The notes under the pieces: model-generated
Database searches by the model: none
Told to the model about the DNA's origin: nothing
What the model saw: the letters and a program-made list of their open reading frames with translations, nothing else
In this document: one piece after another, positions 2 to 15,327 of the stretch
How positions within the stretch are numbered: the stretch's first letter is position 1
Layout of the letters: every line of letters starts with the position of its first letter
Translations under genes and position numbers: made by a program
Assembly (NCBI GenBank): GCA_963811105.1
Contig: CAWEPZ010000011.1
Span: 1,056,001 to 1,120,000, forward strand
DNA: 64,000 nt
Direction: 5' to 3'
Source: Candidatus Bathyarchaeota archaeon
Lineage (GTDB): Archaea > Thermoproteota > Bathyarchaeia > Bathyarchaeales > Bathycorpusculaceae

Positions 2-1576
2 TTGATCGGGTTAAACACCGTTAATGCTCAGAATATAGTTTACAGTGTTGACCATCAATATACCCAGATATTCATTAACCAAGACGGCACCATCGACTTA
101 ACCTACAACATTACCTTAACAGTTACCTCAGGAGTAATTCATGGATTCTATGTTGGTCAACCAAAAAACGACTTTACCATAGGTCAAGCAGTAGACCAGT
201 ATGGAAACAATCTTCAAGTTTCAGACGCTAGCAGCGGCGGCGACTATAGAGTTGATGTTACACTAAACCCGCCCTTAACAGCTGGAAACTCGATCTGGTT
301 CACTGTAACAACCAATGTTGCAGGAATGATATACAACGACACAAAGAACCCTGGCAACTTTGGCATGCAGTTTGCGCCAGAATGGACTAATGTACCAATT
401 AATGATGTACGAGTTCAAATTTTGCTTCCGCCAGGCGCTACTACAAGCGATGTGAAAACTACTCAGAACTTCTATAACAGCACCTCAATAGTGGAGGGAA
501 GGCTGGCTGTATTTTGGCAAATTCCAGTAATACAAGCTAACCAGAAATACTTCGTGGGCGTTTCTTTTCCAGCAAAATACATGCCTAACTACAATCCTCC
601 CAAGACATCAGGCGACTTGGGCAGTCTGGGAAATATTCTTCCATTGATTGTTTTGCCAATAATCGCAATACTCGTAATCATAGCGGTTGTTGGAGTGGCA
701 AGGAAAAGCACGTATTCTTCGCCTAAAGTCAGCATGGAAACCCTCGGAGTAAAACGCGGATTAACCGCAGTTGAGGCTTCTTACCTTCTTGATTTAAAGC
801 CCACACAAATAGTTACAGAAATTCTCTATAGCCTTTTGAAGAAAAGGGCTGTTTGGGCTCAAGAAACCAAACCTTCGCTTAAACTTCAGTTGCTTACGCC
901 TTATGAAAACAAAACAGGCACAGCAGAGAATCCCCTGCAGTATTACGAGATTGATTTTCTTGCCTCGTTGAAAACTGACGGCATGCTTGACGAGGAGAAA
1001 TTGGCGCACACTATCATGTTTTTGCGTGACACGATTGAACAGAAACTGCAGGGATACAGCCGACAAGACACAGTTGACTATTACAAAAAAATAGTTGCTC
1101 AAGCATGGACAATAGTCGAACAGGCTGGAACGGTGGAGTTAACATCAAACGCTTATGATGAACAATTGCTTTGGTTAATGCTTGACCCGAACCAAAAAAT
1201 TAAAACAGAAACAGTCTTTCAAAACAGAGTGTTCCAGCCTAATCCGCTTTGGTTCTGGTGGTGGTTCGGTTACACCACATATTATCCAAATCCAACATAC
1301 AAACCAAACATTCAAGCACCAACACAATCAGCAAAGCCGCCAGCAATTCCAGGCGCTGAATTCGCAAACAACATTGCAACCTCAGTAGAAAAAACTTCAA
1401 ACAACATGGTAGTCAACATAGAAAAATTCGCTAACTCCATTGTTCCACCGCCGCCAAAGGCTTCCCAGCAACCAGCACACCACAAAGCAGACTGCGTCTG
1501 TGCGTGTGCTGCATGTGCCTGTGCTTGCGCTTGTGTTTCATGTGCTTGTGCATGTGCAGGTGGAGGTGCCCATTAG
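2..1576 (+). CDS. Membrane-anchored protein (DUF2207-like; N-terminus probably cut by the window edge) with a C-terminal Cys-rich tail CVCACAACACACACVSCACACAGGGAH
   Basis: Beta-rich N-terminal region, one hydrophobic TM segment (ILPLIVLPIIAILVIIAVVGV), 10 Cys in 21 residues at the C-terminus. Confidence 0.8.
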   Translation: MIGLNTVNAQNIVYSVDHQYTQIFINQDGTIDLTYNITLTVTSGVIHGFYVGQPKNDFTIGQAVDQYGNNLQVSDASSGGDYRVDVTLNPPLTAGNSIWFTVTTNVAGMIYNDTKNPGNFGMQFAPEWTNVPINDVRVQILLPPGATTSDVKTTQNFYNSTSIVEGRLAVFWQIPVIQANQKYFVGVSFPAKYMPNYNPPKTSGDLGSLGNILPLIVLPIIAILVIIAVVGVARKSTYSSPKVSMETLGVKRGLTAVEASYLLDLKPTQIVTEILYSLLKKRAVWAQETKPSLKLQLLTPYENKTGTAENPLQYYEIDFLASLKTDGMLDEEKLAHTIMFLRDTIEQKLQGYSRQDTVDYYKKIVAQAWTIVEQAGTVELTSNAYDEQLLWLMLDPNQKIKTETVFQNRVFQPNPLWFWWWFGYTTYYPNPTYKPNIQAPTQSAKPPAIPGAEFANNIATSVEKTSNNMVVNIEKFANSIVPPPPKASQQPAHHKADCVCACAACACACACVSCACACAGGGAH

Positions 1577-2923
1577 ATGAGTTTTCTAAAATGGATTTTT
1601 GGTAAGCAAAAGGTTCCTGTAGGTCGTTATACTTATCGGGGTAAGGATAAGTTTGTGGGCATGTCCCTTCAACTGCGAATAGAGCAGAGTGGACAAGGGG
1701 TAATGGTAATCAATGCTAACAATGTTCTTCACCTAAACCATACTGCAACAGCGTTCGCTTACTTTTTCATGCAGGGATTGCAAAAAGAAGATGTTGTTAA
1801 AAAGATTCGCAGGTTGTACCGAGTTAATGCTGAAAGAGCAAAGGCCGATTATGAAAAACTAGTATTCACAATAAGTACATTGGCTCAAACAGAAAAAATT
1901 GACCCAGTCACATATCTTGAAATTGAAAAAGAAGAACCGTTCAGTCATCACTATTCAGCACCTCTACGCATGGATTTAGCTTTAACTTTTAGATGCCAAA
2001 ACGACTGCGTCCACTGCTACGCAGGGGGTCCACACGAGACACCGGAATTGTCAACGGTTCAGTGGAAAAGTGTCATCGACAAACTTAGTGAAATCGGCGT
2101 TTTCATCTTAACCTTCACAGGCGGAGAACCAACTTTACGTGAGGATCTGCCAGAACTATTATTGTACGCTCAGAACAAGGGCATCGTTACAGGGTTAATC
2201 AGTAATGGACGAAAGCTAAAAGATGAAGCGTTCGTTGAAGTGCTGGAAAAATCAGGTTTAGATTTTGTTCAGATCACCCTTGAATCACATAAACCCCAAG
2301 TTCACGACAAAATAACCTGCGCAAAAAGTAGTTGGAAAGAAACGGTTACAGGAATAAGAAATGCCGTAAAATCCCGAATTTACGTTTCAACGAACACTAC
2401 CCTAAACAAACAAAACGCCTCAGATTTTCTAACTACAATTGATTTTATTCAAACGCTTGATGTAGACGCTTTCGGATGCAATAGCTTAATTTATTCGGGA
2501 AAGGCGCCAGAAGCAAGCCAAGAATTTGCGCTATCCGTCGAAGAATTGAATACGCTTCTGGTTAAAATCCGAGACAAAGCCCACATGCTCAGGCTAAAGT
2601 TTCTTTGGTATACACCTACACAATACTGCCAATTTAATCCCGTACAGTTAGGCTTAGGCGTCAAAAGCTGCACTGCAGCCATGATAAATGCGTGTGTTGG
2701 ACCAAACGGCGATGTTTACCCATGCCAAAGCTACTTTGAAAGCTTAGGAAATATCCTAACTGATCCCTGGGAGAAAATTTGGAACAACCCGTTAGCCATA
2801 AAACTGCGAAAAAGAGACTATGTTGAGCAAAAATGTACAGATTGTTCACAGTTGCAGGTTTGCGGTGGAGGATGCCCCTTGGAGCTTCAAAACAAGGGGT
2901 ATCAATGTAGCCAGACAGGATAA
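1577..2923 (+). CDS. Radical SAM/SPASM enzyme with N-terminal PqqD/RRE-like domain
   Basis: CQNDCVHC (CxxxCxxC), TGGEP, SPASM CTAA..GDVYPC..CTDC..VCGGGC; N-terminal LHLNHTATAF..EDVVKKIRRLYRV..AKADYEKL resembles PqqD/RRE. Confidence 0.9.
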   Translation: MSFLKWIFGKQKVPVGRYTYRGKDKFVGMSLQLRIEQSGQGVMVINANNVLHLNHTATAFAYFFMQGLQKEDVVKKIRRLYRVNAERAKADYEKLVFTISTLAQTEKIDPVTYLEIEKEEPFSHHYSAPLRMDLALTFRCQNDCVHCYAGGPHETPELSTVQWKSVIDKLSEIGVFILTFTGGEPTLREDLPELLLYAQNKGIVTGLISNGRKLKDEAFVEVLEKSGLDFVQITLESHKPQVHDKITCAKSSWKETVTGIRNAVKSRIYVSTNTTLNKQNASDFLTTIDFIQTLDVDAFGCNSLIYSGKAPEASQEFALSVEELNTLLVKIRDKAHMLRLKFLWYTPTQYCQFNPVQLGLGVKSCTAAMINACVGPNGDVYPCQSYFESLGNILTDPWEKIWNNPLAIKLRKRDYVEQKCTDCSQLQVCGGGCPLELQNKGYQCSQTG

Positions 2924-2989: not shown

Positions 2990-4225
2990 ATGGTTGCCAG
3001 AGATAAGCCTAGGCTGATAGTTTTTGACGTTGAAGGAGTGCTTATTCCAAAAAACCGCTTCTTGTTTGAAGTAGGAAAAAAATTAGGCTTCATTAAACTC
3101 ATTAACCTTCTTTTTTATGGTTTTTTATATGAAGCAGGCCTACTAAAACTCGAATCAGCTCTAACTCGCGCCTTCAGAGAATTAAGAGGTGTTAAGCCGG
3201 AAGAATTGATGCTTATTTTCAACAAAATTGCCTCAACCGCTTTCTTGCAAACTCTATTCGCCCAAATCAAAACGAGAAATTGCAAAATCGCCTTGATTAG
3301 CTCAGGGGTGCCATCAGATATTGTAAAAAATTTAGCCATAACAGTGGGCGCAGATTACGCTTACGGAATTGAAGTTGAAACCAAAAATGGCAGGTTAACG
3401 GGCAAAATCGAGGGTGACGTTATTCAACCGAGTGGAAAGCTCAAGATTTTATCGCAGATCATAACCTTGGAAGGCGTAAGCTTAAGAGACTGCATCGTTG
3501 TCGCCGACGACAGAAATAACCGTTGCATGTTTATGCCTGGAATACTTAAAATTGGGTTTAATCCTGATTTTTTTATCCGCATGAAAGCCGACAAGGTAGT
3601 AGTTGGGAAGCTTTCTCAAATCTTACCCATTATCGATGGTAAAATACAAAAGCGTTCTTTCCCGTCAACGAACGATTTGGTAAGAGAAGACATTCATGCT
3701 TCAGGTTTCTTTATGCCAGTTATCGCCAGTTTTACAGGTGTGCCTTTTGTTGGCGCATTAATTTTCGCAATAGCGATGGTATACACTGCCTCTGAACTTT
3801 GGCGTTTAGAAGGAAAAGAAATATTGCTCATTTCGGCAATTACACGCCACGCTGCTTCACAATCGGAACTGCATGGTTTTGCAGCAGCCCCATTATACTT
3901 TGCTGCGGGTGTATTGTCAACGCTAATTTTGTTTCCTGCGCCCGCAAGCTATGCCGCCGTTGCTATGTTCTGCCTAGGTGACAGCGCCGCTTCCCTTTTC
4001 GGAGGCCTCATATCCACATCTTTACCATTTAATAAGGGAAAAACTTGGGAAGGCTCAGTAGGTGGATTCGTGTTTGCGTTTTTAGGCGGTCTGTTTTTTG
4101 TCTCGCCAATTTGGGCTTTGATTGGAGCAGCAATTGCTATGACAGTTGAGGTTCTTCCTTTACCGATAAATGACAACGTGCTTATACCAGTGATTACAGG
4201 AGCAGCACTAACGCTTCTACTCTAA
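2990..4225 (+). CDS. HAD phosphatase (SerB-like) fused to a CTP-dependent dolichol/phytol kinase-like membrane domain
   Basis: FDVEGVL, ISSG, VADDRNN HAD motifs; C-terminal GDSAASLFG..KGKTWEGS..INDNVLIP. Confidence 0.75.
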   Translation: MVARDKPRLIVFDVEGVLIPKNRFLFEVGKKLGFIKLINLLFYGFLYEAGLLKLESALTRAFRELRGVKPEELMLIFNKIASTAFLQTLFAQIKTRNCKIALISSGVPSDIVKNLAITVGADYAYGIEVETKNGRLTGKIEGDVIQPSGKLKILSQIITLEGVSLRDCIVVADDRNNRCMFMPGILKIGFNPDFFIRMKADKVVVGKLSQILPIIDGKIQKRSFPSTNDLVREDIHASGFFMPVIASFTGVPFVGALIFAIAMVYTASELWRLEGKEILLISAITRHAASQSELHGFAAAPLYFAAGVLSTLILFPAPASYAAVAMFCLGDSAASLFGGLISTSLPFNKGKTWEGSVGGFVFAFLGGLFFVSPIWALIGAAIAMTVEVLPLPINDNVLIPVITGAALTLLL

Positions 4226-6451: not shown

Positions 6452-6556
6452 TTCGCCCAGGGAACTCTTTGAAACTGCCATTGAAAAATTTTCAAAACAA
6501 TATTGCTCTAGAAGAGAGTATTGTTACCAAAAAGGAGATGCAGAGAAATAACCAAA

Positions 6557-8254
6557 ATGTCTGGTGCAAAAGCACTTTTAGAATCCCTTGATCGGCAAAA
6601 CGTAGAAGTGATATTCGGCATTTTAGGCGGAGCAATCCTTCCTGTATATGATGCATTATGCGGCCATGAAAAGATTAGACACATCCTTAGTCGACATGAG
6701 CAAGGAGCAGCACACGCCGCTGAAGGCTATGCGAGAGCCAGCGGACGAGTAGGAGTGTGCATGGCAACCTCAGGACCAGGAGCCACAAACCTAGTTACAG
6801 GGATTGCAAACGCCTACATGGATTCTTCGCCAATTGTAGCTCTAACAGGGCAAGTCCCAACAATTGGCGGTAACAGTTCATACATGATTGGCAGAGATGC
6901 CTTTCAAGAAGCAGATATAATCGGCATTACAACTCCTATCACTAAATACAATTTTCAGCCAAGGACAGTTGCTGAAATTCCGACAACAGTTAACACGGCA
7001 TTCTATATAGCAGCTACAGGCAGACCAGGACCAGTTCTAATTGACTTGCCGAAAAACGTGCAGGCAGAAACCGCCGAAGTCGAAGTAACTGACAAAATTG
7101 ATGCCAGAGGCTACAAATCTATGATCGAGATAGATTTGACTAAAATCAGCGCAGCTGCTAATTTGCTCATAAACGCTGAGAAACCAGTTATATTGTCTGG
7201 CGGAGGAGTCATAATTTCGAACGCTTCAGATGAGCTTATGCAAATGTCTGATTTGTTGATGGCCCCAGTTGCAACAACATTCATGGGCAAAGGTTCAATC
7301 TCAGAATGCCATCCATTATCAGTTGGAAGCATTGGAATGCATGGAAATCCAGCTGCAAACAGGTTAATGAGCGAAGCTGACGTGTTATTGGCAGTTGGAA
7401 CAAGATTCTCTGACCGAGCAACAGCAAACGTTGATACATTCGCTAATAATGCTAAAAAGATTCACATTGACATTGACGACGCAGAAATCGGAAAAAACAT
7501 TGAAGTTGATGTGCCAATAGTCGGGGATGCTAAGACAGTTTTGAAATTATTGCATACAGCCTTAGCTGGTAAATTGCACAAAAAAGAAAGCACTGTTTGG
7601 ACAAAAAGAGTCAAAGCAACAAAAGATCTTCTGAGCCCGCTACTAAAAGAAGTGCCCAAAGATTTAGTGCCCAAAGCGCTACTAATGGAGCTAAGGAAAC
7701 TGTTGCCTGAAAACACTATAGTGACGACGGAAGTCGGCCAAAACCAAATGTGGTCAGCCCTATATTTCCAAGCATTAAAGCCAAGAACATTCATCAGTTC
7801 AGGCGGATTAGGGACCATGGGCTTTGGTTTCCCAGCGGCAATAGGAGCAAAAGTTGCATTTCCAAACAGGCCAGTCGTAGATATAGCCGGCGACGGCAGC
7901 TTCATAATGACTGAACAAGAACTCGCATGCTCAGTAACGGAGAACATCCCTGTAATAGTCATAGTGCTGAACAATTCAGTACTTGGCATGGTGGCACAGT
8001 GGCAACGAATGCTCTACAAACGGCGCTACATGGCAGTTAATCTAGGCAAAACACCAGATTTCGTGAAGCTGGCAGAAGCTTACGGAGCACAAGGCTTCCG
8101 AGCAGGGTCAATGGAAGAGTTCCAAAAAGCAGTTAAGAAAGCACTAAACAGTAAAGTAACAACGGTAATCGATGTACCTATAGGCTCAGAGGAGGACGTC
8201 GTACCTTTTGTACCTCCAGGCTGCGGTTTACCACAACAGCAAGGTGACTATTAG
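6557..8254 (+). CDS. ilvB: Acetolactate synthase large subunit
   Basis: RHEQGAAHAAEGYARASG, TSGPGATN, SGGLGTMGFG, GDGSF ThDP motif; start moved to MSGAKAL. Confidence 0.97.
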   Translation: MSGAKALLESLDRQNVEVIFGILGGAILPVYDALCGHEKIRHILSRHEQGAAHAAEGYARASGRVGVCMATSGPGATNLVTGIANAYMDSSPIVALTGQVPTIGGNSSYMIGRDAFQEADIIGITTPITKYNFQPRTVAEIPTTVNTAFYIAATGRPGPVLIDLPKNVQAETAEVEVTDKIDARGYKSMIEIDLTKISAAANLLINAEKPVILSGGGVIISNASDELMQMSDLLMAPVATTFMGKGSISECHPLSVGSIGMHGNPAANRLMSEADVLLAVGTRFSDRATANVDTFANNAKKIHIDIDDAEIGKNIEVDVPIVGDAKTVLKLLHTALAGKLHKKESTVWTKRVKATKDLLSPLLKEVPKDLVPKALLMELRKLLPENTIVTTEVGQNQMWSALYFQALKPRTFISSGGLGTMGFGFPAAIGAKVAFPNRPVVDIAGDGSFIMTEQELACSVTENIPVIVIVLNNSVLGMVAQWQRMLYKRRYMAVNLGKTPDFVKLAEAYGAQGFRAGSMEEFQKAVKKALNSKVTTVIDVPIGSEEDVVPFVPPGCGLPQQQGDY

Positions 8255-8255
8255 A

Positions 8256-8768
8256 ATGGAAGCCGAAAAAACAAAAATCATCTCCGTATTAGTTGAAAAC
8301 AAGCCAGGAGTATTGCACGGAGTAGCCAACCTCTTCCGGCGAAGAAACTTCAACATTGAAAGCATAACAGTCGGCCCAACTGAACACGCAGACATCTCTC
8401 GAATGACAATAACAGTCAACGAGGATGAAAAGACAATAGAGCAAGTCATCAAGCAACTAGCAAAACTCATTGACATACTAAAAGTTGAGGAACTGGAGGA
8501 AGGAAGCTATGTAATGCGTGAACTTGCTTTGATAAAAGTCAATGCGCCGAGCCCAAAAGAACGCTCCGACATAATAAACTGCGTAGAAGTTTTCCGAAGT
8601 AGAGTCATAGATGTTTCAATTGATAGCCTAACAGTCGAAATGACAGGAACACCTGACAAAATAGATGCATTCCTTAATCTGATGAAAACAACTGGCGTAA
8701 TTGAGCTTGCAAGAACGGGTATAACCGCATTAGCTAGAGGAGCAAAATCGATAAGAATAGACGAATAA
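8256..8768 (+). CDS. ilvH: Acetolactate synthase small regulatory (ACT) subunit
   Basis: ISVLVENKPGVL..FRRRNFNIESITVG..ELARTG. Confidence 0.96.
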   Translation: MEAEKTKIISVLVENKPGVLHGVANLFRRRNFNIESITVGPTEHADISRMTITVNEDEKTIEQVIKQLAKLIDILKVEELEEGSYVMRELALIKVNAPSPKERSDIINCVEVFRSRVIDVSIDSLTVEMTGTPDKIDAFLNLMKTTGVIELARTGITALARGAKSIRIDE

Positions 8769-8825
8769 ATCGTCTCTGTTGACGGAAACCCTTAACTCTC
8801 AGTTTCTCAAAATTCACAAACCTTC

Positions 8826-8840
8826 ATGATAATTGTCTGA
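8826..8840 (+). promoter_or_regulatory. Mini-uORF M-I-I-V-stop upstream of leuC
   Basis: atg ata att gtc tga about 30 nt after a BRE/TATA-like ggaaacccttaact (8784-8797). Confidence 0.35.
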
Positions 8841-8872
8841 AAACAGGTTAATTGTAACAAAGGTGAAAAAAT

Positions 8873-10141
8873 ATGAATATAACAGAAAAAATCTTGGCTA
8901 AAGCTTCAGGAAAACAAGTTGTGCACCCACGAGAAATAGTTGATGCAAACGTGGACATGATAATGGTTCATGATTTAACTGGACCTTTGGCTGTAGAAGC
9001 TTTCAAAAAAATAGGCGTACAAAAAGTGTGGGATAACAGGAAAGCAGTGGTCATACTGGACCATCAGGTACCAGCGGAATCAGTTAAAGCTGCAGAACTG
9101 CACAAAACTATGCGGCAATTCGCCAAAGACCAAAAACTACGAATATATGATATTGGCAGAGGCGGTATCTGCCACCAAGTCATGCCGGAAAAAGGACATG
9201 TTGTTCCAGGAACCGTAATTGTTGGTGCTGATTCTCACACTTGCACTTATGGAGCCTTCGGAGCTTTCGCAACTGGCATCGGTTCGACTGAAGCAGCTGC
9301 AGTTTTTGCTACTGGAAAGATTTGGCTGAAAGTTCCCGAAGCAATAAAAGTAAATGTGACTGGAGAATTCCAAGATTTTGTTACTCCAAAAGACTTAGTA
9401 TTATCAATAATAGGGAAAATGAGCGTTGACGGCGCTATATACAAAAGCGTTGAATTCACTGGCCCAACTATAAAGGACATGAGTATAGCGGGAAGAATGA
9501 CAATATGCAACATGGCTGTGGAAATGGGTGCTAAAAACGGCATCATAGAACCAGACGAAACAACCCGCAAGTTCTTAGAAGGCAGAGTCAAGAAGTTGCC
9601 AAACTTTGAATCCTTGAAAAGCGATAAAGATGCAGTATACGAGCGCACAATTGAATTTGACGTTTCAAAGATGGAGCCGCAAGTTGCTTGTCCATCATCA
9701 GTTGACAATGTTAAACCAGTTTCGGAAGTAGGCAACATGCAAATTGAGCAGGCGTTTATCGGATCATGTACCAACGGCAGAATCGAAGATTTACGTTTAG
9801 CTGCTCGAGTCCTGAAAGGAAAACGCGTAAAAGATGGCGTTAGGGCACTGGTGATTCCAGCCTCTCAAGAAGTTTACAAACAAGCCTTAAACGAGGGCTT
9901 ACTAGAAATATTTACAGATGCAGGCGCAATAGTTTGCGGTTCAGCTTGCGGTCCATGCTTAGGTGGACACATCGGACTGTTAGCAGCAGAAGAAATATGC
10001 GTAAGCACTTCAAATCGGAACTTCATCGGGAGAATGGGCAGCACGCTGGCCAGCGTATTCTTGGCTTCGCCTGCAACTGTTGCTGCTTCAGCAATTACAG
10101 GGAAAATTACTGATCCAAGAAAACTGGAGGCAAAGGCATGA
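8873..10141 (+). CDS. leuC: 3-isopropylmalate dehydratase large subunit (archaeal type)
   Basis: GADSHTCT, IGSCTNGRIEDL, CGPCLG, STSNRNF. Confidence 0.93.
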   Translation: MNITEKILAKASGKQVVHPREIVDANVDMIMVHDLTGPLAVEAFKKIGVQKVWDNRKAVVILDHQVPAESVKAAELHKTMRQFAKDQKLRIYDIGRGGICHQVMPEKGHVVPGTVIVGADSHTCTYGAFGAFATGIGSTEAAAVFATGKIWLKVPEAIKVNVTGEFQDFVTPKDLVLSIIGKMSVDGAIYKSVEFTGPTIKDMSIAGRMTICNMAVEMGAKNGIIEPDETTRKFLEGRVKKLPNFESLKSDKDAVYERTIEFDVSKMEPQVACPSSVDNVKPVSEVGNMQIEQAFIGSCTNGRIEDLRLAARVLKGKRVKDGVRALVIPASQEVYKQALNEGLLEIFTDAGAIVCGSACGPCLGGHIGLLAAEEICVSTSNRNFIGRMGSTLASVFLASPATVAASAITGKITDPRKLEAKA

Positions 10142-10641
10142 ACCTGAAAATCGAAGGCGTGGCTATAAAATTCGGAAACAATGTTGACACAGATGTTATT
10201 TTGCCAGGAAAATACCTAATACTGATCGATCCTTACGAATTAGCAAAACATGCATTGGAAAGCTTAGACCCAACGTTCCCTGAAAAAGCAAAAAAAGGCG
10301 TCATTTTAGTCGGGGGCAAAAACTTTGGTTGCGGTTCAAGCAGAGAACAAGCTCCTTTAGCCTTAAAGTTTGCAGGTGTGAAATGCGTGTTAGCGGAATC
10401 TTTCGCAAGGATTTTCTTCCGAAACGCCATTAACATTGGCTTACCAGTAATTGAATGCAAAGGCATATCTAACGCCGTTGAAACAGGCGAAGAATTGGCG
10501 GTAGACTTTGAAGCTGGCAAGATAGAAAATGTTTCACGAGGCAAAAAGTTTCAAGTGGAGAAGCTTCCACCATTTATCTTAGAAATACTAGTTGAGGGCG
10601 GATTGATAGAAAATTTACGAAGGAGAATGAACAAAAAATGA
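10138..10641 (+). CDS. leuD: 3-isopropylmalate dehydratase small subunit
   Basis: NVDTDVILP, NFGCGSSREQA, ESFARIFFRNAIN. Confidence 0.93.
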   Translation: MNLKIEGVAIKFGNNVDTDVILPGKYLILIDPYELAKHALESLDPTFPEKAKKGVILVGGKNFGCGSSREQAPLALKFAGVKCVLAESFARIFFRNAINIGLPVIECKGISNAVETGEELAVDFEAGKIENVSRGKKFQVEKLPPFILEILVEGGLIENLRRRMNKK

Positions 10642-11675
10642 CTGAATACATAATTTCCCTGATTCCTGGCGACGGGATTGGCCCAGAATTAACAGAAGCC
10701 ACCTTGAAAGTTTTAGATGCCGTTAAGAAGAAGTTTGGCATTGAACTTAAAATTGTTGAAGCAGAAGCAGGAGACGCAACTTTAGCTAAAAGAGGTGCAG
10801 CCCTTCCTGCTGAAAGCGTAGAAATAATCAAGGGATCCCACGCTTGTCTAAAAGGACCAGTTGGCGAAACTGCAGCAGATGTCATCGTTAAACTCCGTTT
10901 GATGTTTGATTTGTATGCTAATCTCCGTCCTTTGAAAACTTATCCAAACGTTCCAGTTGCCAGGCCAGACATTGACATGATATTTGTTAGGGAAAACACC
11001 GAGGACGTTTACAAAGGATTGGAATTCGCCATAGGCAACGACACAACCATATGCCTAAGAATAATTACGAGAGGAAATTGTGAACGCATAGCCAAAAAAG
11101 CCTTCGAAATTGCACGCTTACGCAACGGCAAAAAGAAAGTAACTGCTATACACAAAGCGAACGTCATGAGAATAACGGACGGATTATTTGCCAGCGTATG
11201 CCGCGAAACAGCAAAGAGGTACCCAGACATCGCCTTTAACGAATTATATGTTGATGCTGCTTCAATGCGATTGATAAAAGAGCCGCAGGAATTTGATGTC
11301 TTCTGTACCTGCAACATGTTCGGCGACATTCTCTCAGATGAAGCCGCTCAGCTAATCGGCGGGTTAGGCATGGCTCCAGGCGCAAACATAGGTGACAACT
11401 TTGCTCTCTTTGAACCCATCCACGGTTCAGCACCAAACAGAGCAGGGAAACATACAGCAAACCCAATCTCCATGATACTATCTGCGAAAATGATGCTGGA
11501 GTGGATAGGCGAAAAATACAACGATAAAAAAAGCATACAAGCAGGCAAAGCAATAGAGAACGGAGTAATATACGCATTACGTAACGGTCAAACTGTTCCA
11601 GACTGCGGCGGCAACACTACGACCGTGGGAATGGCAGAAGCCATTGCTGCAGCCTTGACAGTGAAAACTGGTTGA
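10638..11675 (+). CDS. leuB: Isopropylmalate/isocitrate-family dehydrogenase
   Basis: IPGDGIGPE, RENTED, NMFGDILSD, EPIHGSAP; operon context. Confidence 0.85.
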   Translation: MTEYIISLIPGDGIGPELTEATLKVLDAVKKKFGIELKIVEAEAGDATLAKRGAALPAESVEIIKGSHACLKGPVGETAADVIVKLRLMFDLYANLRPLKTYPNVPVARPDIDMIFVRENTEDVYKGLEFAIGNDTTICLRIITRGNCERIAKKAFEIARLRNGKKKVTAIHKANVMRITDGLFASVCRETAKRYPDIAFNELYVDAASMRLIKEPQEFDVFCTCNMFGDILSDEAAQLIGGLGMAPGANIGDNFALFEPIHGSAPNRAGKHTANPISMILSAKMMLEWIGEKYNDKKSIQAGKAIENGVIYALRNGQTVPDCGGNTTTVGMAEAIAAALTVKTG

Positions 11676-11679
11676 AAAA

Positions 11680-13203
11680 ATGACAAATAAAACTTCAAAA
11701 CGTATCCGTATTTTTGACACAACATTAAGAGATGGGGAACAAACCCCCGGCGTATCTTTAACTGCAGATGACAAGATTGAGATTGCACGTCAACTGAGCA
11801 AACTAGGCGTTGACATTATTGAAGCCGGTTTTCCAAGTTCATCTGAAGGCGAGAAAAAAGTTGTCGCTCAAATAGCGAAAGACGGTTTGGAACCAGAAAT
11901 TTGTGCACTATCGCGTGCAACCAAAGGCGATATTGATGCCGCCGTTGCCTGCGACGTGGACTTAATCCACGTCTTCATTCCCACTTCGCCCGTACAAATG
12001 AAGTATGCTGTAAACTTAACTCCTGAACAAGTACTTGCCTCAACCATAGAATCTATTGAGCATGTGAAGAAGCACGGCATGAAATGCGAGTTTTCTCCTA
12101 TGGATGCCACACGCTCAGAAATGCCTTTCCTAAAACAAGTTTGCCAAGCAGCAGAAAAAGCAGGCATGGACACTTTAAACGTCCCAGATACTGTGGGAAT
12201 AATGACTCCAAAAACAACCATAAAGCTTATCGAGGAACTCAAAACGGTAGTTAAAGTTCCCGTTAGTACGCATTGTCATGATGACTTTGGTTTGGCGGTT
12301 GCAAACTCCTTAGCTGCTGTTGAAGCAGGCGCTGCCCAAGTGCATGTTGCCATTAACGGTTTAGGTGAGCGAGCAGGTAACGCGTCGCTGGAAGAAGTAG
12401 TTATGGCTTTACATGAGATTTACAATTATAAGACAAACGTAAACACACGGTTATTGTTCAGCACATCCAGAATGGTGGCTTCATTAACTGGCATAGCAGT
12501 GCAAGCGAACAAAGCAATTGTTGGCGAGAACGCGTTTGCCCATGAATCAGGTATTCACACTCGCGGAGTAACAGAGAAACCACTAACGTTTGAGCCGATA
12601 AACCCTGAGTTAGTGGGTCGTACAAGAAAATTAGTTGCTGGAAAACTGGCTGGATCCCGCGGCATAAGAGCTGAGCTAGAAGAGATAGATATTCACCCAA
12701 CTGAAGATCAACTTAAAGAAATTGTACAACGCGTCAAAGAACTCGGGGAAAAGGGCAAGATGATAACTGATGCGGATTTGCTGGCATTAACTTCTGCGGT
12801 TATGGGCGAAGTAATAGGCGAAGAAAAAATCGTTGACTTATGCGACTTGGCAGTTGTAACAGGCATCAAAGTTATCCCAACAGCATCAGTTAGGCTAACT
12901 TTGGACGGCAAAGAGCACATTGCCGCAGAAACGGGAGTTGGCCCAGTAGACGCAGTCTTAAAAGCCATCCAAAAACTAACCAATAACCTAGAAAATATTA
13001 GCCTCAGCGAGTACCGGCTTGAGGCCATCACTGGCGGCTCAAATGCAGTTGCAGAAGTCGTCATAAAAGTTCAAGATGAAAAAGGCAATATCGTTTCAGC
13101 TCGGGCAGCTAGAGAAGACATCGTTATGGCTAGCGTTGAAGCAATGATAAACGGTATAAACAAACTCTTGATAAAGAATCGTAAGCAGGGAAACAAAAAG
13201 TGA
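11680..13203 (+). CDS. leuA: 2-isopropylmalate synthase / citramalate synthase family
   Basis: FDTTLRDGEQTPG, HCHDDFG, GERAGN, HESGIH, C-terminal GVGPVDA regulatory domain; leuA versus cimA not resolvable by eye. Confidence 0.85.
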   Translation: MTNKTSKRIRIFDTTLRDGEQTPGVSLTADDKIEIARQLSKLGVDIIEAGFPSSSEGEKKVVAQIAKDGLEPEICALSRATKGDIDAAVACDVDLIHVFIPTSPVQMKYAVNLTPEQVLASTIESIEHVKKHGMKCEFSPMDATRSEMPFLKQVCQAAEKAGMDTLNVPDTVGIMTPKTTIKLIEELKTVVKVPVSTHCHDDFGLAVANSLAAVEAGAAQVHVAINGLGERAGNASLEEVVMALHEIYNYKTNVNTRLLFSTSRMVASLTGIAVQANKAIVGENAFAHESGIHTRGVTEKPLTFEPINPELVGRTRKLVAGKLAGSRGIRAELEEIDIHPTEDQLKEIVQRVKELGEKGKMITDADLLALTSAVMGEVIGEEKIVDLCDLAVVTGIKVIPTASVRLTLDGKEHIAAETGVGPVDAVLKAIQKLTNNLENISLSEYRLEAITGGSNAVAEVVIKVQDEKGNIVSARAAREDIVMASVEAMINGINKLLIKNRKQGNKK

Positions 13204-14012
13204 AAGTTGCCTTCCAAGGCGAACCAGGAGCATATAGCGAAAGTGCAGTCTTCCAAGTCTTCGGAGAAAATACACAGGTTAAACCATGCAAAGACTTCAA
13301 AGACGTTTTTGAAAACGTCTGCTCAGCGGAAACAAATTTTGGCGTTGTCCCAGTCGAGAACAGCTTAGAAGGCAGCATAAATCAAAACTACGACCTCTTT
13401 CTAAGATATGATTTGAAGGTTTTCGGAGAAGTCATTGTAAAAATCGAGCACTGCCTTATCACAAATCCCGGCACTGCTTTGTCCGACATCAAATTTGTTT
13501 ATTCTCATCCTCAAGCGCTGGCACAGTGCCGAAGCTTCTTGGAGGATTTCGGGCGCGAACTCATACCATCATATGACACAGCCGGAAGCGTCAAGTTGAT
13601 TAAAGAAAAAGGCTTAAAAAACGCTGCGGCGATTGCAAGTGAAAGAGCAGCCAACATATACAGCATGCATATCGTCGCCAAAGACATCGCAGACAACCCT
13701 GAGAACTACACGCGGTTCTTCATCCTTTCAACCGAGGATTCACCCGCATCCGGCAATGATAAAACCTCAATAATTTTCTCCGCAAAACATGAGCCAGGCT
13801 CACTTTATCATGCTATTGGGGAATTCGCTAAAAGAAACATCAACCTTACCAAAATCGAGTCGAGACCCACAAAGAAAACTGCATGGGAATACAATTTCTA
13901 CCTTGACTTTGAAGGACACCGAACCGAACCCATACGTGCAGAAGCCTTGAAAGCTTTGGAGAAATATTCAATTTTTATCAAAATCTTAGGTTCATACCCT
14001 AAAGGCGTTTAA
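13200..14012 (+). CDS. pheA: Prephenate dehydratase
   Basis: AFQGEPGAYSE, PVENSLEG, SHPQALAQC, NYTRF, LTKIESRP. Confidence 0.96.
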   Translation: MKVAFQGEPGAYSESAVFQVFGENTQVKPCKDFKDVFENVCSAETNFGVVPVENSLEGSINQNYDLFLRYDLKVFGEVIVKIEHCLITNPGTALSDIKFVYSHPQALAQCRSFLEDFGRELIPSYDTAGSVKLIKEKGLKNAAAIASERAANIYSMHIVAKDIADNPENYTRFFILSTEDSPASGNDKTSIIFSAKHEPGSLYHAIGEFAKRNINLTKIESRPTKKTAWEYNFYLDFEGHRTEPIRAEALKALEKYSIFIKILGSYPKGV

Positions 14013-14039
14013 CTTCGTAATTTTGGTTTCAATTAGATT

Positions 14040-14394
14040 TTACTTCTTCTCTTTTTTGGGCGGTAATGATGAAACGTACTTTATTGATTTGCCCAACCAT
14101 ATAGCAAAAAATCCATTGTCAGAGTAAAGAATTTTGGAAGAACAACATAACCTTCCATAGCCCTTCCCGGAATTGGTTCAGAGATGCAATAACATCCTTT
14201 CACTTTTTCATTATTTCCGCAATGTCAACGTCCGATAGCCGCAGGAAAGTCTAACACCGTAGACTCCAAAAAACATAATTGCCATTACTAAAATATGCTG
14301 GGTGCCCGAAGATAATGCCGCAATCGCATTTTGTGTCTTTCATTTTTTCTGTTATGGCTCTACAAGTTCCGCCATGGCTTTCGTCCCATTCCAA
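14040..14394 (-). pseudogene. Degraded TfoX/Sxy N-terminal-family gene
   Basis: Minus-strand fragments IFGHPAYFSNGN, EPIPGRAMEGYVVLP and WLGKSIKYVSSLPPKKEKK, interrupted by frameshifts/stops. Confidence 0.6.
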
Positions 14395-14454
14395 AAAATC
14401 AGCTCAGACTATTAAAGCAAAAAATAATTACTTTAGTTTTTCTATCGGTATTTA

Positions 14455-15327
14455 TTACTCTGCAGATTCAAGCATCTTATACATGACATCATAGGACTTC
14501 GCGAAGTCTGTATCAGTCTCTTTTAGCTTTGCCTTCAACTGTTCCATCCGCTCAACGATTGCTTTTGCGTCTTTCTTTCTAATCAGACCCAACCATTCTT
14601 GCGCTTTTGCCATAAACTGGTCTTCGATTTTGCTCAGATCAGGCAAATCTGTTTGCAAACTTGCGTAGAGGTCCGGCGTTTCCAAAGCTGTTGCTTCCGC
14701 CAGAGTGAATAGCATTCGGTAGGTTATGCCTGCCACCTTCTTGGTTTCGGGCAAATTCTTCTGTTCCAAAAGTGTCTCACACGCAACTAAACCAAGAAAA
14801 TGTGGCAAACCGAGAACAACCGACATTAATTCATCATGTTTTTTCGGCGACATAACAAATACGTGAGCTTCCTCTTTCTCCAGCACTTTCTTAAATTCTT
14901 GAGCAAACTTTTCTTCTGCAGCATTTGTTGGGGTTAGGATGTAAGCCTTATGCTTAACGCCGTTGCTTCCTGGCCCAAAAACGGGGTGCGTACCCAGCGC
15001 CAAAGCTTCTTTAATGTTTTCATGCATGAGTTTGACAGGGGTTTCTTTAATTGAGCAGATATCCATTACGATTTGTCCTTTGTGAAGTACTGGAGCAATG
15101 GTTTTGACTACTTCTTCAAAGGCTGTGATAGATACACAGATTAGTACTTGGTCAACGCCAATTACTGCTTCTCTGAAATCAGTGGTTGTATTGATCTGCA
15201 ATTGCTTTTTGAGGTTAGCTATTTTTTCTTTTTTTCTATCAGCCAAAGTAACGGAGTAACCTTTTGAATGATAAAATTTAGCGAACCAAACACCCATTTT
15301 ACCTGCGCCAATTACGGCGATTTTCAT
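14455..15327 (-). CDS. tyrA: Prephenate dehydrogenase
   Basis: IGAGKMG, DICSIKE, HPVFGP, HDELMSVVLGLPH. Confidence 0.93.
   Translation of the reverse strand: MKIAVIGAGKMGVWFAKFYHSKGYSVTLADRKKEKIANLKKQLQINTTTDFREAVIGVDQVLICVSITAFEEVVKTIAPVLHKGQIVMDICSIKETPVKLMHENIKEALALGTHPVFGPGSNGVKHKAYILTPTNAAEEKFAQEFKKVLEKEEAHVFVMSPKKHDELMSVVLGLPHFLGLVACETLLEQKNLPETKKVAGITYRMLFTLAEATALETPDLYASLQTDLPDLSKIEDQFMAKAQEWLGLIRKKDAKAIVERMEQLKAKLKETDTDFAKSYDVMYKMLESAE

Follow-up and report, generated by a model that had tools for sequence, protein, structure and literature searches.

A cysteine-alanine-tailed membrane protein and its linked RRE-radical SAM-SPASM enzyme: a candidate in-place protein modification unit of archaea and bacteria

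The subject of this analysis is a gene unit at the 5' end of a 64,000-nucleotide stretch (hereafter the window) from a Candidatus Bathyarchaeota archaeon (GenBank assembly GCA_963811105.1, contig CAWEPZ010000011.1, positions 1,056,001 to 1,120,000 of the forward strand), in which a DUF2207-like membrane protein ending in the cysteine-alanine tail CVCACAACACACACVSCACACAGGGAH is coupled to a radical S-adenosylmethionine (SAM) enzyme that bears a SPASM region and a recognition element (RRE) of the kind used by enzymes that modify RiPPs, peptides made by the ribosome and modified after translation. The unit is real, widespread and tightly linked, and its radical SAM enzyme probably modifies the Cys-Ala tail in place, the most likely products, as judged from sequences and models, being thioether cross-links. 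Gene order and coupling, the RRE-radical SAM-SPASM architecture, the invariance of the tail, the reciprocal co-occurrence of tail and enzyme, and a single enzyme clade with invariant active-site residues are established features of the unit. A preliminary description of this DNA, made from its letters, had reported the ten-cysteine tail at the end of the protein and the immediate start of the next gene, and both were confirmed: the stop codon TAG (1574-1576) directly abuts the ATG of the enzyme gene at position 1577, with zero gap.

The tail itself is nearly invariant, with a mean conservation of 0.92 as compared to 0.41 for the outer domain, 0.45 for the cytoplasmic domain and 0.58 for a YxxP motif that follows the membrane helix, in an alignment that reaches down to 24% identity and whose members were picked because they have the tail. 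Within it Ala and Cys are equally fixed, and Asp or Glu is present in just three of 102 tail cores; a low-complexity linker precedes the core and few residues follow the Cys run. Codon usage within the tail is mixed (TGC/TGT for Cys, GCG/GCT/GCA/GCC for Ala), and the 102 CACACAGGG cores from the fetched loci, some of them duplicates or close kin, are encoded by 84 distinct DNA spellings with approximately equal use of both Cys codons, thus substantiating the earlier suggestion that varied codons reflect selection at the protein level rather than slippage. A microsatellite or frame artefact as the origin of the tail was accordingly rejected, on the grounds of codon mixing and conservation. A profile search of 50%-identity representatives returned 776 proteins at E <= 0.001, and the tail, mostly with 7-10 Cys, was present in 102 of the 105 proteins of at least 500 residues among the matches listed, the remaining three having just the outer domain in common with it; the profile contained the tail and so favours tailed matches. 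Within the genome under study, a six-frame scan for runs of at least four Cys-X revealed no second Cys-Ala tail ending in GGG.

Carriers of the tail protein were found among Bathyarchaeia, Thermoprotei, Korarchaeota, Theionarchaea, the methanogen Methanooceanicella nereidis and Anaerolineaceae, and fall into type A, with the tail at the very C-terminus, and type B, short carriers in which the tail is followed by AGC.... Full-length carriers retain, as judged by eye, a signal-peptide-like start and the outer domain. Some members (L159:6319-8436, L161:3748-5640, P0145 and P0160) possess an internal Cys-Ala run with approximately 90 residues beyond it, and in the first of these the unit extends further, with genes for PspA/IM30 and for a small membrane protein. 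Tandem tail-bearing genes occur in L032, L044, L048, L098 and L105.

The preliminary description had named co-occurrence of the tail with this radical SAM clade as a check, and it was borne out in two collections. Of the 301 genomes of the phylum, 17 were found to encode the tail protein and 15 the enzyme clade; each of these 15 holds both side by side, with the small gene of the unit sitting between the two in one of them; in the two genomes with a tail protein but no enzyme, the tail gene is cut by a contig end. In these genomes 14 members of the clade match at E <= 3e-174 and one is frameshifted; the next best match has an E value of 2e-62. A search of metagenomes with a DNA pattern that covers the tail and takes no account of the remaining protein yielded 125 stretches, of which 80 with flanks were counted; four same-contig duplicates were dropped to give 76 contigs, four chance matches were removed, and three true tails missed by the pattern (L030, L085, L095) were restored by eye. 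A same-strand enzyme homologue, up- or downstream, is present in 59 of the 72 true-tail contigs, while the remaining 13 stop short of where it would lie; close kinship among many of these contigs means that the counts do not represent independent trials. The control set consisted of 15 canonical DUF2207_C proteins of the same phylum: none has a Cys in its last 40 residues or a radical SAM match within 1.5 kb, and the ends of the 14 complete ones are Gly-rich. Furthermore, a quick tree with outgroups solely from the genome under study separated 36 tail-linked homologues (live, twitch-type and cluster-less) from 12 other radical SAM proteins of that genome, with a Shimodaira-Hasegawa-like approximate likelihood-ratio (SH-aLRT) support of 99.

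The unit comprises three genes in the order 122-aa (amino acid) zinc-ribbon protein, 541-aa tail protein and 448-aa enzyme, with the stop codon of the first overlapping the start of the second (ATGGTGA). The 122-aa protein has a hydrophobic N-terminal half, a CxxC...CxxC zinc ribbon and a C-terminal EEPKW, and its TIGR02098 zinc finger scores above the cut-off. In all six relatives among species genomes, all of them Bathyarchaeia, the tail gene precedes the enzyme gene, and the small gene is visible in five, the sixth locus being interrupted by a contig end. A homologue of the zinc-ribbon gene adjoins the tail gene in both archaeal and bacterial loci. The enzyme gene lies mostly downstream of the tail gene in type A and upstream in type B, and the genes outside the unit differ from lineage to lineage. 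The three genes are still together in L160 (6225-9545), where the small gene is inverted between the other two, and in L158 (6292-9618), where it follows the enzyme gene. In L162 (49900-52400) tail gene and enzyme gene alike are fragmented, reflecting either sequencing error or decay, and L003, L005 and L012 show a break in the enzyme gene. A sigma-70 promoter and terminator scan, a model ill-suited to archaea, gave results near chance level. The coordinates of the unit are collected in Table 1.

Table 1. Coordinates of the unit and of its parts (window positions unless marked as contig positions).
Feature	Position	Strand	Remarks
Small membrane/zinc-ribbon gene, first of the unit	contig 1055589-1055957 (L001:9589-9957)		122 aa; lies entirely upstream of the window
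Membrane protein gene	2..1576	+	residues 18-541 of a 541-aa DUF2207-like protein; start codon 50 nt 5' of the window
Predicted outer (extracellular) domain, DUF2207-N-like	29..595	+	residues 27-215
Predicted transmembrane helix	635..700	+	residues 229-250, followed by basic residues; hydropathy 3.36
YSSPKVSME, predicted YxxP-type RRE recognition sequence	713..739	+	residues 255-263
Leader proposed in the preliminary description, EFANNIATSVEK...	1358..1441	+	residues 470-497; unsupported as RRE ligand
10-Cys (Cys-Ala)n-GGG tail, likely substrate	1493..1573	+	protein end, CVCACAACACACACVSCACACAGGGAH
RRE-radical SAM-SPASM enzyme gene	1577..2923	+	448 aa
RRE (PqqD-like) domain and linker	1616..1948	+	enzyme residues 14-124
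CxxxCxxC SAM-cluster motif	1994..2017	+	C140, C144, C147
SPASM region with clade-invariant PCQS motif	2627..2908	+	C351-C444

The CxxxCxxC and SPASM motifs noted earlier in the enzyme were upheld by Pfam, in which Radical_SAM (PF04055; E 9e-24, 85 bits against a cut-off of 29.5) and SPASM (PF13186; E 4e-11, 43 bits against a cut-off of 21.5) were both detected above threshold. C140, C144 and C147 are invariant in 45 of 45 aligned enzymes, members chosen for having the motif, and the SPASM cysteines (351, 365, 373, 383, 420, 423, 429, 433 and 444) form a pattern that aligns with the auxiliary-cluster domains of CteB, SuiB and anSME. The PqqD/RRE-like N-terminus, a further point that the preliminary description had put up for checking, is an RRE as judged from profiles and predicted fold. 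The Pfam PqqD model falls under its cut-off on the window enzyme alone (E 0.006), while 33 of 49 enzyme family members match it at E <= 0.01, and the N-terminal family profile matches the solved lasso RREs TfuB1 (E 2.7e-7) and TbiB1 (E 0.036). The model of the enzyme (predicted local distance difference test score, pLDDT, 89; predicted template modelling score, pTM, 0.88) displays the RRE pattern, with strands at residues 30-53 and helices at 55-104. In a wide VIA-align search its best fold match was SkfB (Z 28.3, root-mean-square deviation 3.6, 344 aligned residues), which covers the RRE, followed by SuiB, anSME, ChlB and CteB (Z 25.4, 24.7, 24.5 and 24.4); SkfB is also the best sequence match (E 1e-31). 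None of the best 25 of 71 NCBIfam matches reaches its cut-off, the top one attaining 143 bits against 500 (NirJ2), and the named radical SAM equivalogs SkfB (92 against 300), StsB (80 against 625), AlbA, PqqE, MftC, NirJ/Ahb, GeoRSP and ACGX all remain below their curated cut-offs. Two radical SAM/SPASM frames of approximately 710 aa, belonging to another family with look-alikes in many related genomes, lie elsewhere on the contig, near 1340723 (+) and 1464410 (-).

Six catalytic-site positions were adopted from Precord et al. 2023 (PMC10288494). The clade possesses the set Y-T-(I/N/V/L)-T-Q-S, in which Y148, T181, Q384 and S385 are invariant (45/45) and T234 nearly so (43/45). This set is identical in three of six positions to that of StsB (Y-T-I-S-K-L), in three of six to that of SkfB (Y-T-F-S-Q-L), and in none to that of CteB. 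The PCQS motif is kept in 18 of 18 type-B enzymes among those listed, and pattern matching found the combination of Y-T with QS in none of the 18 other radical SAM-like open reading frames (ORFs) of the genome. C365, C383 and C433, the cysteines of the first auxiliary cluster (AuxI), are conserved.

The fold and topology of the membrane protein were assigned from hydropathy and weak profile matches. Its N-terminus is hydrophobic and ends in VNA-Q, a predicted signal peptide, and the approximately 290 residues after the helix at 229-250 are predicted to be cytoplasmic. A single hydrophobic segment after residue 45 is seen in the hydropathy profiles of 71 of the 102 family members; 29 have more than one and two have none. 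Pfam DUF2207 (PF09972) remains below its cut-off on the window protein (E 0.0014, 19.3 bits against 24.4) and matches none of 40 representative tail proteins at E <= 0.001, and PF20990 has no match in the genome under study; the protein is nevertheless called DUF2207-like because many of its close homologues bear a precomputed PF09972 label. Its ESM Atlas look-alikes are DUF2207 proteins as well, and its outer domain has a profile match to P0195 (E 5.5e-5), while a profile search of solved structures with the membrane protein returned no match below E 0.1. The outer domain is reused without the tail, fused to other surface domains, in P0162, P0175, P0176, P0185 and P0210, and is apparently duplicated in P0148, P0161 and P0211.

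The RRE is predicted to dock on the juxtamembrane YxxPxV motif of the membrane protein (residues 255-262), some 260 residues ahead of the tail. In the conserved sequence YSSPKVSME, Y255 occurs in 101, P258 in 96 and E263 in 91 of 102 members. A modelled complex of the enzyme with residues 252-541 scored 0.81 (0.79-0.82 in three runs) compared to 0.00 for the best of three controls, the mark applied being one that 116 of 157 solved complexes but only two of 215 mismatched pairs reach; the runs agree in at least 37% of contacts, with a partner pLDDT of at least 68. In this model residues 252-266 lie in the RRE cleft, where 257-262 pair with RRE residues 51-57 and helices 79-98, and residues 357-373 provide more contacts. 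YxxP has been described as an RRE recognition motif in lasso peptides (PMC12710340), and the leaders of StsA/BlaA contain YTTPKV (supplement of PMC10288494), to be compared with YSSPKV here. The proposal that residues 470-497 act as the RRE-binding leader was not sustained: their conservation is 0.40, they are absent from the short type B, and they lie outside the confident contacts of the predicted complex.

In the mechanism that we favour, the predicted signal peptide and single transmembrane helix would place everything after residue 250 in the cytoplasm together with the enzyme. The RRE would take up the YxxPxV motif as an added strand, so that the recognition sequence would be internal and about 260 residues away from the core, and the flexible Pro/Ser/Gly-rich linker may allow the tail to reach the active site. 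SAM-derived radicals would then abstract hydrogen from Ala or Gly, after which the Cys sulfurs would be coupled, presumably in a sactionine-like manner since the Asp and Glu acceptors known from ranthipeptides are nearly absent from the cores. The product would stay on the membrane protein, given the lack of a conserved peptidase or exporter. The zinc-ribbon protein may act as an accessory subunit, and many bacterial versions would add a methyltransferase and a cluster-less paralogue.

Several observations weigh against this reading. The sole enzyme homologue in the examined flank of L055, L082 and L098 has no CxxxCxxC; profile A2 was built in part from the genomes that were counted, and kin are non-independent. 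The tail is absent from the confidently placed residues of the predicted complex, whose score may in addition be due to likeness to RRE-leader structures, since such complexes have already been solved. An aromatic-x-x-Pro sequence after the membrane helix is shared by canonical DUF2207 proteins that have no radical SAM partner, and the YxxP motif may therefore be ancestral, while most type-B carriers are devoid of it, with L051 and L076 retaining it. As regards the active site, the mapping of position 3 was inferred and this position varies, and the last Cys of the second auxiliary cluster (AuxII) is retained in just 23 of 45 enzymes. An extra Cys at 349-351, present in 45 of 45 aligned enzymes, is a candidate fourth AuxI ligand, and C368, which aligns with anSME C261, occurs in 8 of 45 enzymes and in 13 of 14 of the twitch type; with such a ligand AuxI may be fully ligated.

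A fourth AuxI ligand, for which every enzyme has a candidate (C349-351 or C368), would suit an alternative that we regard as unlikely, in which the enzyme, bound to the membrane protein, would act on the tail by non-thioether radical chemistry, such as anSME-like oxidation of Cys to thioaldehyde, formylglycine or enethiol, epimerisation at the C-alpha of every second residue, or the formation of C-C bonds. It would also agree with anSME and SuiB being the best matches of the SPASM region and the third and second fold matches, and with the small number of residues after the Cys run that could serve as hairpin acceptors. The active-site set is, however, nearer to those of the sactisynthases SkfB and StsB than to those of SuiB, PqqE or CteB, and no candidate for a hydrogen-donating Cys is universal, as C301 and C373 vary and C351 is missing in the twitch type. 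CteB, too, has an upstream Cys that is no cluster ligand.

The surroundings of the unit bear on what else the tail might be. In agreement with the preliminary description, no separate small precursor was found, a short Cys-rich precursor ORF being neither present in the unit nor conserved in its relatives, and no other conserved candidate substrate was found nearby. Neither 13 archaeal regions of 7-16 kb, inspected by eye, nor the bacterial flanks of up to 3.5 kb revealed a conserved peptidase, transporter or exporter, and the tail proteins contain no conserved cleavage motif that we could find. Bacterial-type loci frequently encode a paralogue without CxxxCxxC that retains the RRE, and the adjacent enzyme homologue in L098 (where the tail genes are in tandem), L055 and L082 keeps some SPASM cysteines. 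Related class I methyltransferases follow the unit in ten contigs and two fragments; their profile scores 132-342 bits in this unit-linked set, eight of which are its own seeds, compared to 65 bits for the best match in the genome under study. In four type-B contigs a zinc ribbon is located within the cytoplasmic part of the tail protein. At single loci, genes for TPM-domain and LemA proteins directly follow the tail gene (L076:2645-3764), and a Band-7/SPFH domain occupies the same open frame upstream of the enzyme (L089:4331-5998); together with the PspA neighbour these make three isolated hints of an envelope-stress setting. The unit flanks also contained one S9 peptidase and one alpha/beta hydrolase gene. 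A related ORF of 180-210 aa, which by eye resembles a REP-associated tyrosine transposase, lies between tail gene and enzyme in L030, L062, L074 and L081.

CxC repeats are typical metal ligands, and the tail might accordingly be an unmodified thiolate array for metal or Fe-S, with the radical SAM protein as a bound component of a complex for membrane signalling or metal handling, using SAM on another substrate or serving mainly as a scaffold. This alternative ranks next in plausibility and is likewise improbable. The common occurrence of cluster-less paralogues that keep the RRE, one of them being the sole homologue in three contigs, speaks in its favour, as do the conserved zinc-ribbon partner, the zinc ribbon inside the tail protein of four contigs, and the PspA, LemA+TPM or Band-7 neighbours. 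Against this stand the invariance of CxxxCxxC and of the substrate-facing residues in live archaeal and bacterial enzymes, even those that lost AuxII, and the lack of another conserved candidate substrate near the unit. Furthermore, Ala residues as fixed as the Cys residues would suit a core read by an enzyme better than a chelator.

Release of a modified tail as a free RiPP by a housekeeping protease, cleavage having been offered as an option in the preliminary description, is very unlikely: the low-complexity linker ahead of the core, the three tail fragments in a published precursor set (supplement of PMC10288494) and the two hydrolase-type neighbours are outweighed by the absence of a conserved peptidase, transporter or cleavage motif in flanks of 3.5-6 kb, by members whose tail is internal with about 90 residues beyond it, and by the signal-peptide-like start and outer domain that full-length carriers keep.

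In-place modification of the tail can be extended to a bolder proposal, which we consider possible but doubtful, namely that these membrane proteins are their own RiPP precursors: YxxP would recruit the enzyme, and the tail would become a poly-cross-linked or metal-binding attached cofactor in transmembrane sensing, made by undescribed chemistry such as radical-made Cys-S to Ala-C-beta (lanthionine-type) bonds. On this similarly tentative view, the enzyme would act alone or with the cluster-less paralogue, the zinc-ribbon subunit and the methyltransferase, and the class would span domains. As to the biological role, our guess is an envelope or metal/redox sensing or binding module.

Outside the unit, a gene at 2990-4225 (+) combines a HAD/SerB-like domain with a hydrophobic multi-pass C-terminal half that by eye resembles dolichol/phytol kinases, and follows the unit only in several close Bathyarchaeia. 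Genes of ordinary biosynthesis lie on either side, with ilv/leu and pheA/tyrA-like genes further downstream (6521-15327) and a LysW-type lysine/arginine set upstream of the unit (L001:479-6147), all named by eye from translations. The HAD-family gene and the lysine/arginine genes were considered and rejected as members, because the unit has unrelated neighbours in most relatives.

The unit looks like an RRE-dependent maturase system in its build, yet it belongs to no named sactipeptide, ranthipeptide or CrpC family since short precursor, protease and exporter are missing. The hairpin sactipeptide synthases SkfB and StsB/BlaB (Precord et al. 2023, PMC10288494) resemble the enzyme, SkfB being its best sequence and fold match and each sharing three of six catalytic residues, while their systems differ in having a short precursor, protease and exporter, and the enzyme differs in its possible fourth AuxI Cys. 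The supplement of the same paper contains three C-terminal fragments of the tail family as 'Other Uncharacterized' precursors (group 40), so the tail-enzyme link is already catalogued in a dataset, while the main-text sections covered contain no discussion of group 40 or of its derivation from membrane proteins. That precursor finders catch only fragments of the family would be explained by a substrate that is a membrane protein of full size and whose recognition site is internal. A literature search returned no description of the unit, although the family might be mentioned in the PMC10288494 figure supplement, in the large PMC12710340 datasets or possibly in those of PMC13692751.

Membrane proteins have been proposed as substrates of a RiPP-type enzyme before: TIGR04222 proteins carry Ser/Gly-rich, Cys-containing C-termini and are the proposed substrates of MNIO (DUF692) enzymes (Antoine et al. 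2025, PMC12452194). TIGR04222 matches two of 16 representative tail proteins weakly (E 2.5e-4 and 1.1e-3; best 20.8 bits against a cut-off of 43), and no MNIO family match occurred among 55 neighbour proteins scanned. That system further differs in that MNIO is a non-haem iron enzyme, the tails are variable and predicted to be periplasmic, and a third of the genomes have no MNIO (PMC12452194), whereas the tail described here is nearly invariant, predicted to be cytoplasmic and almost strictly linked to its enzyme. Canonical DUF2207 proteins (PF09972/PF20990; e.g. S. mutans SMU.243, PMC10457818) have a similar outer domain and share the aromatic-x-x-Pro after the helix and a Gly-rich end such as ...GGGAGAR, but their tail is Cys-free and their genes have no radical SAM neighbour within 1.5 kb (15/15), and the tail family remains under both Pfam cut-offs. 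The unit also offers a handle on the membrane proteins of the DUF2207-like and TIGR04222-like kinds, for whose low-complexity tails no function is known. TfuB1 and TbiB1 are stand-alone RREs serving a protease and a cyclase, and no lasso protease or cyclase genes were seen at the unit. They are the nearest solved relatives of the enzyme RRE, for which a YxxP recognition motif like that of lasso peptides (PMC12710340) is predicted as well.

Thioether cross-linking of a protein by an RRE-radical SAM-SPASM enzyme has been described for CrpC and CrpA of Methanococcus voltae (TIGR04463; Dieter et al. 2026, PMC13692751). There too, an archaeal enzyme is encoded beside a Cys-rich protein; CrpC contacts CrpA through its RRE and further domain contacts. 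TIGR04463 is not among the best 25 of 71 NCBIfam matches of the enzyme, and the three supplement files of PMC13692751 that were covered contain no mention of CACACA, DUF2207 or Bathyarchae. CrpC has a three-Cys open AuxI site, from which a fully ligated AuxI here would differ. CrpA, at 29 kDa, has an N-terminal leader and repeats of C-x-x-Q/D (PMC13692751), whereas the tail protein is membrane-bound and has a predicted recognition motif in its interior and a (CA)n core in which Asp or Glu is rare (3/102). An invariant core of 7-10 Cys with unactivated Ala and Gly neighbours may reveal new radical chemistry. The known substrates of RRE-dependent radical SAM enzymes are mostly short secreted peptides and a few proteins, and the unit, if the proposed modification is true, would extend them to a full-size membrane protein.

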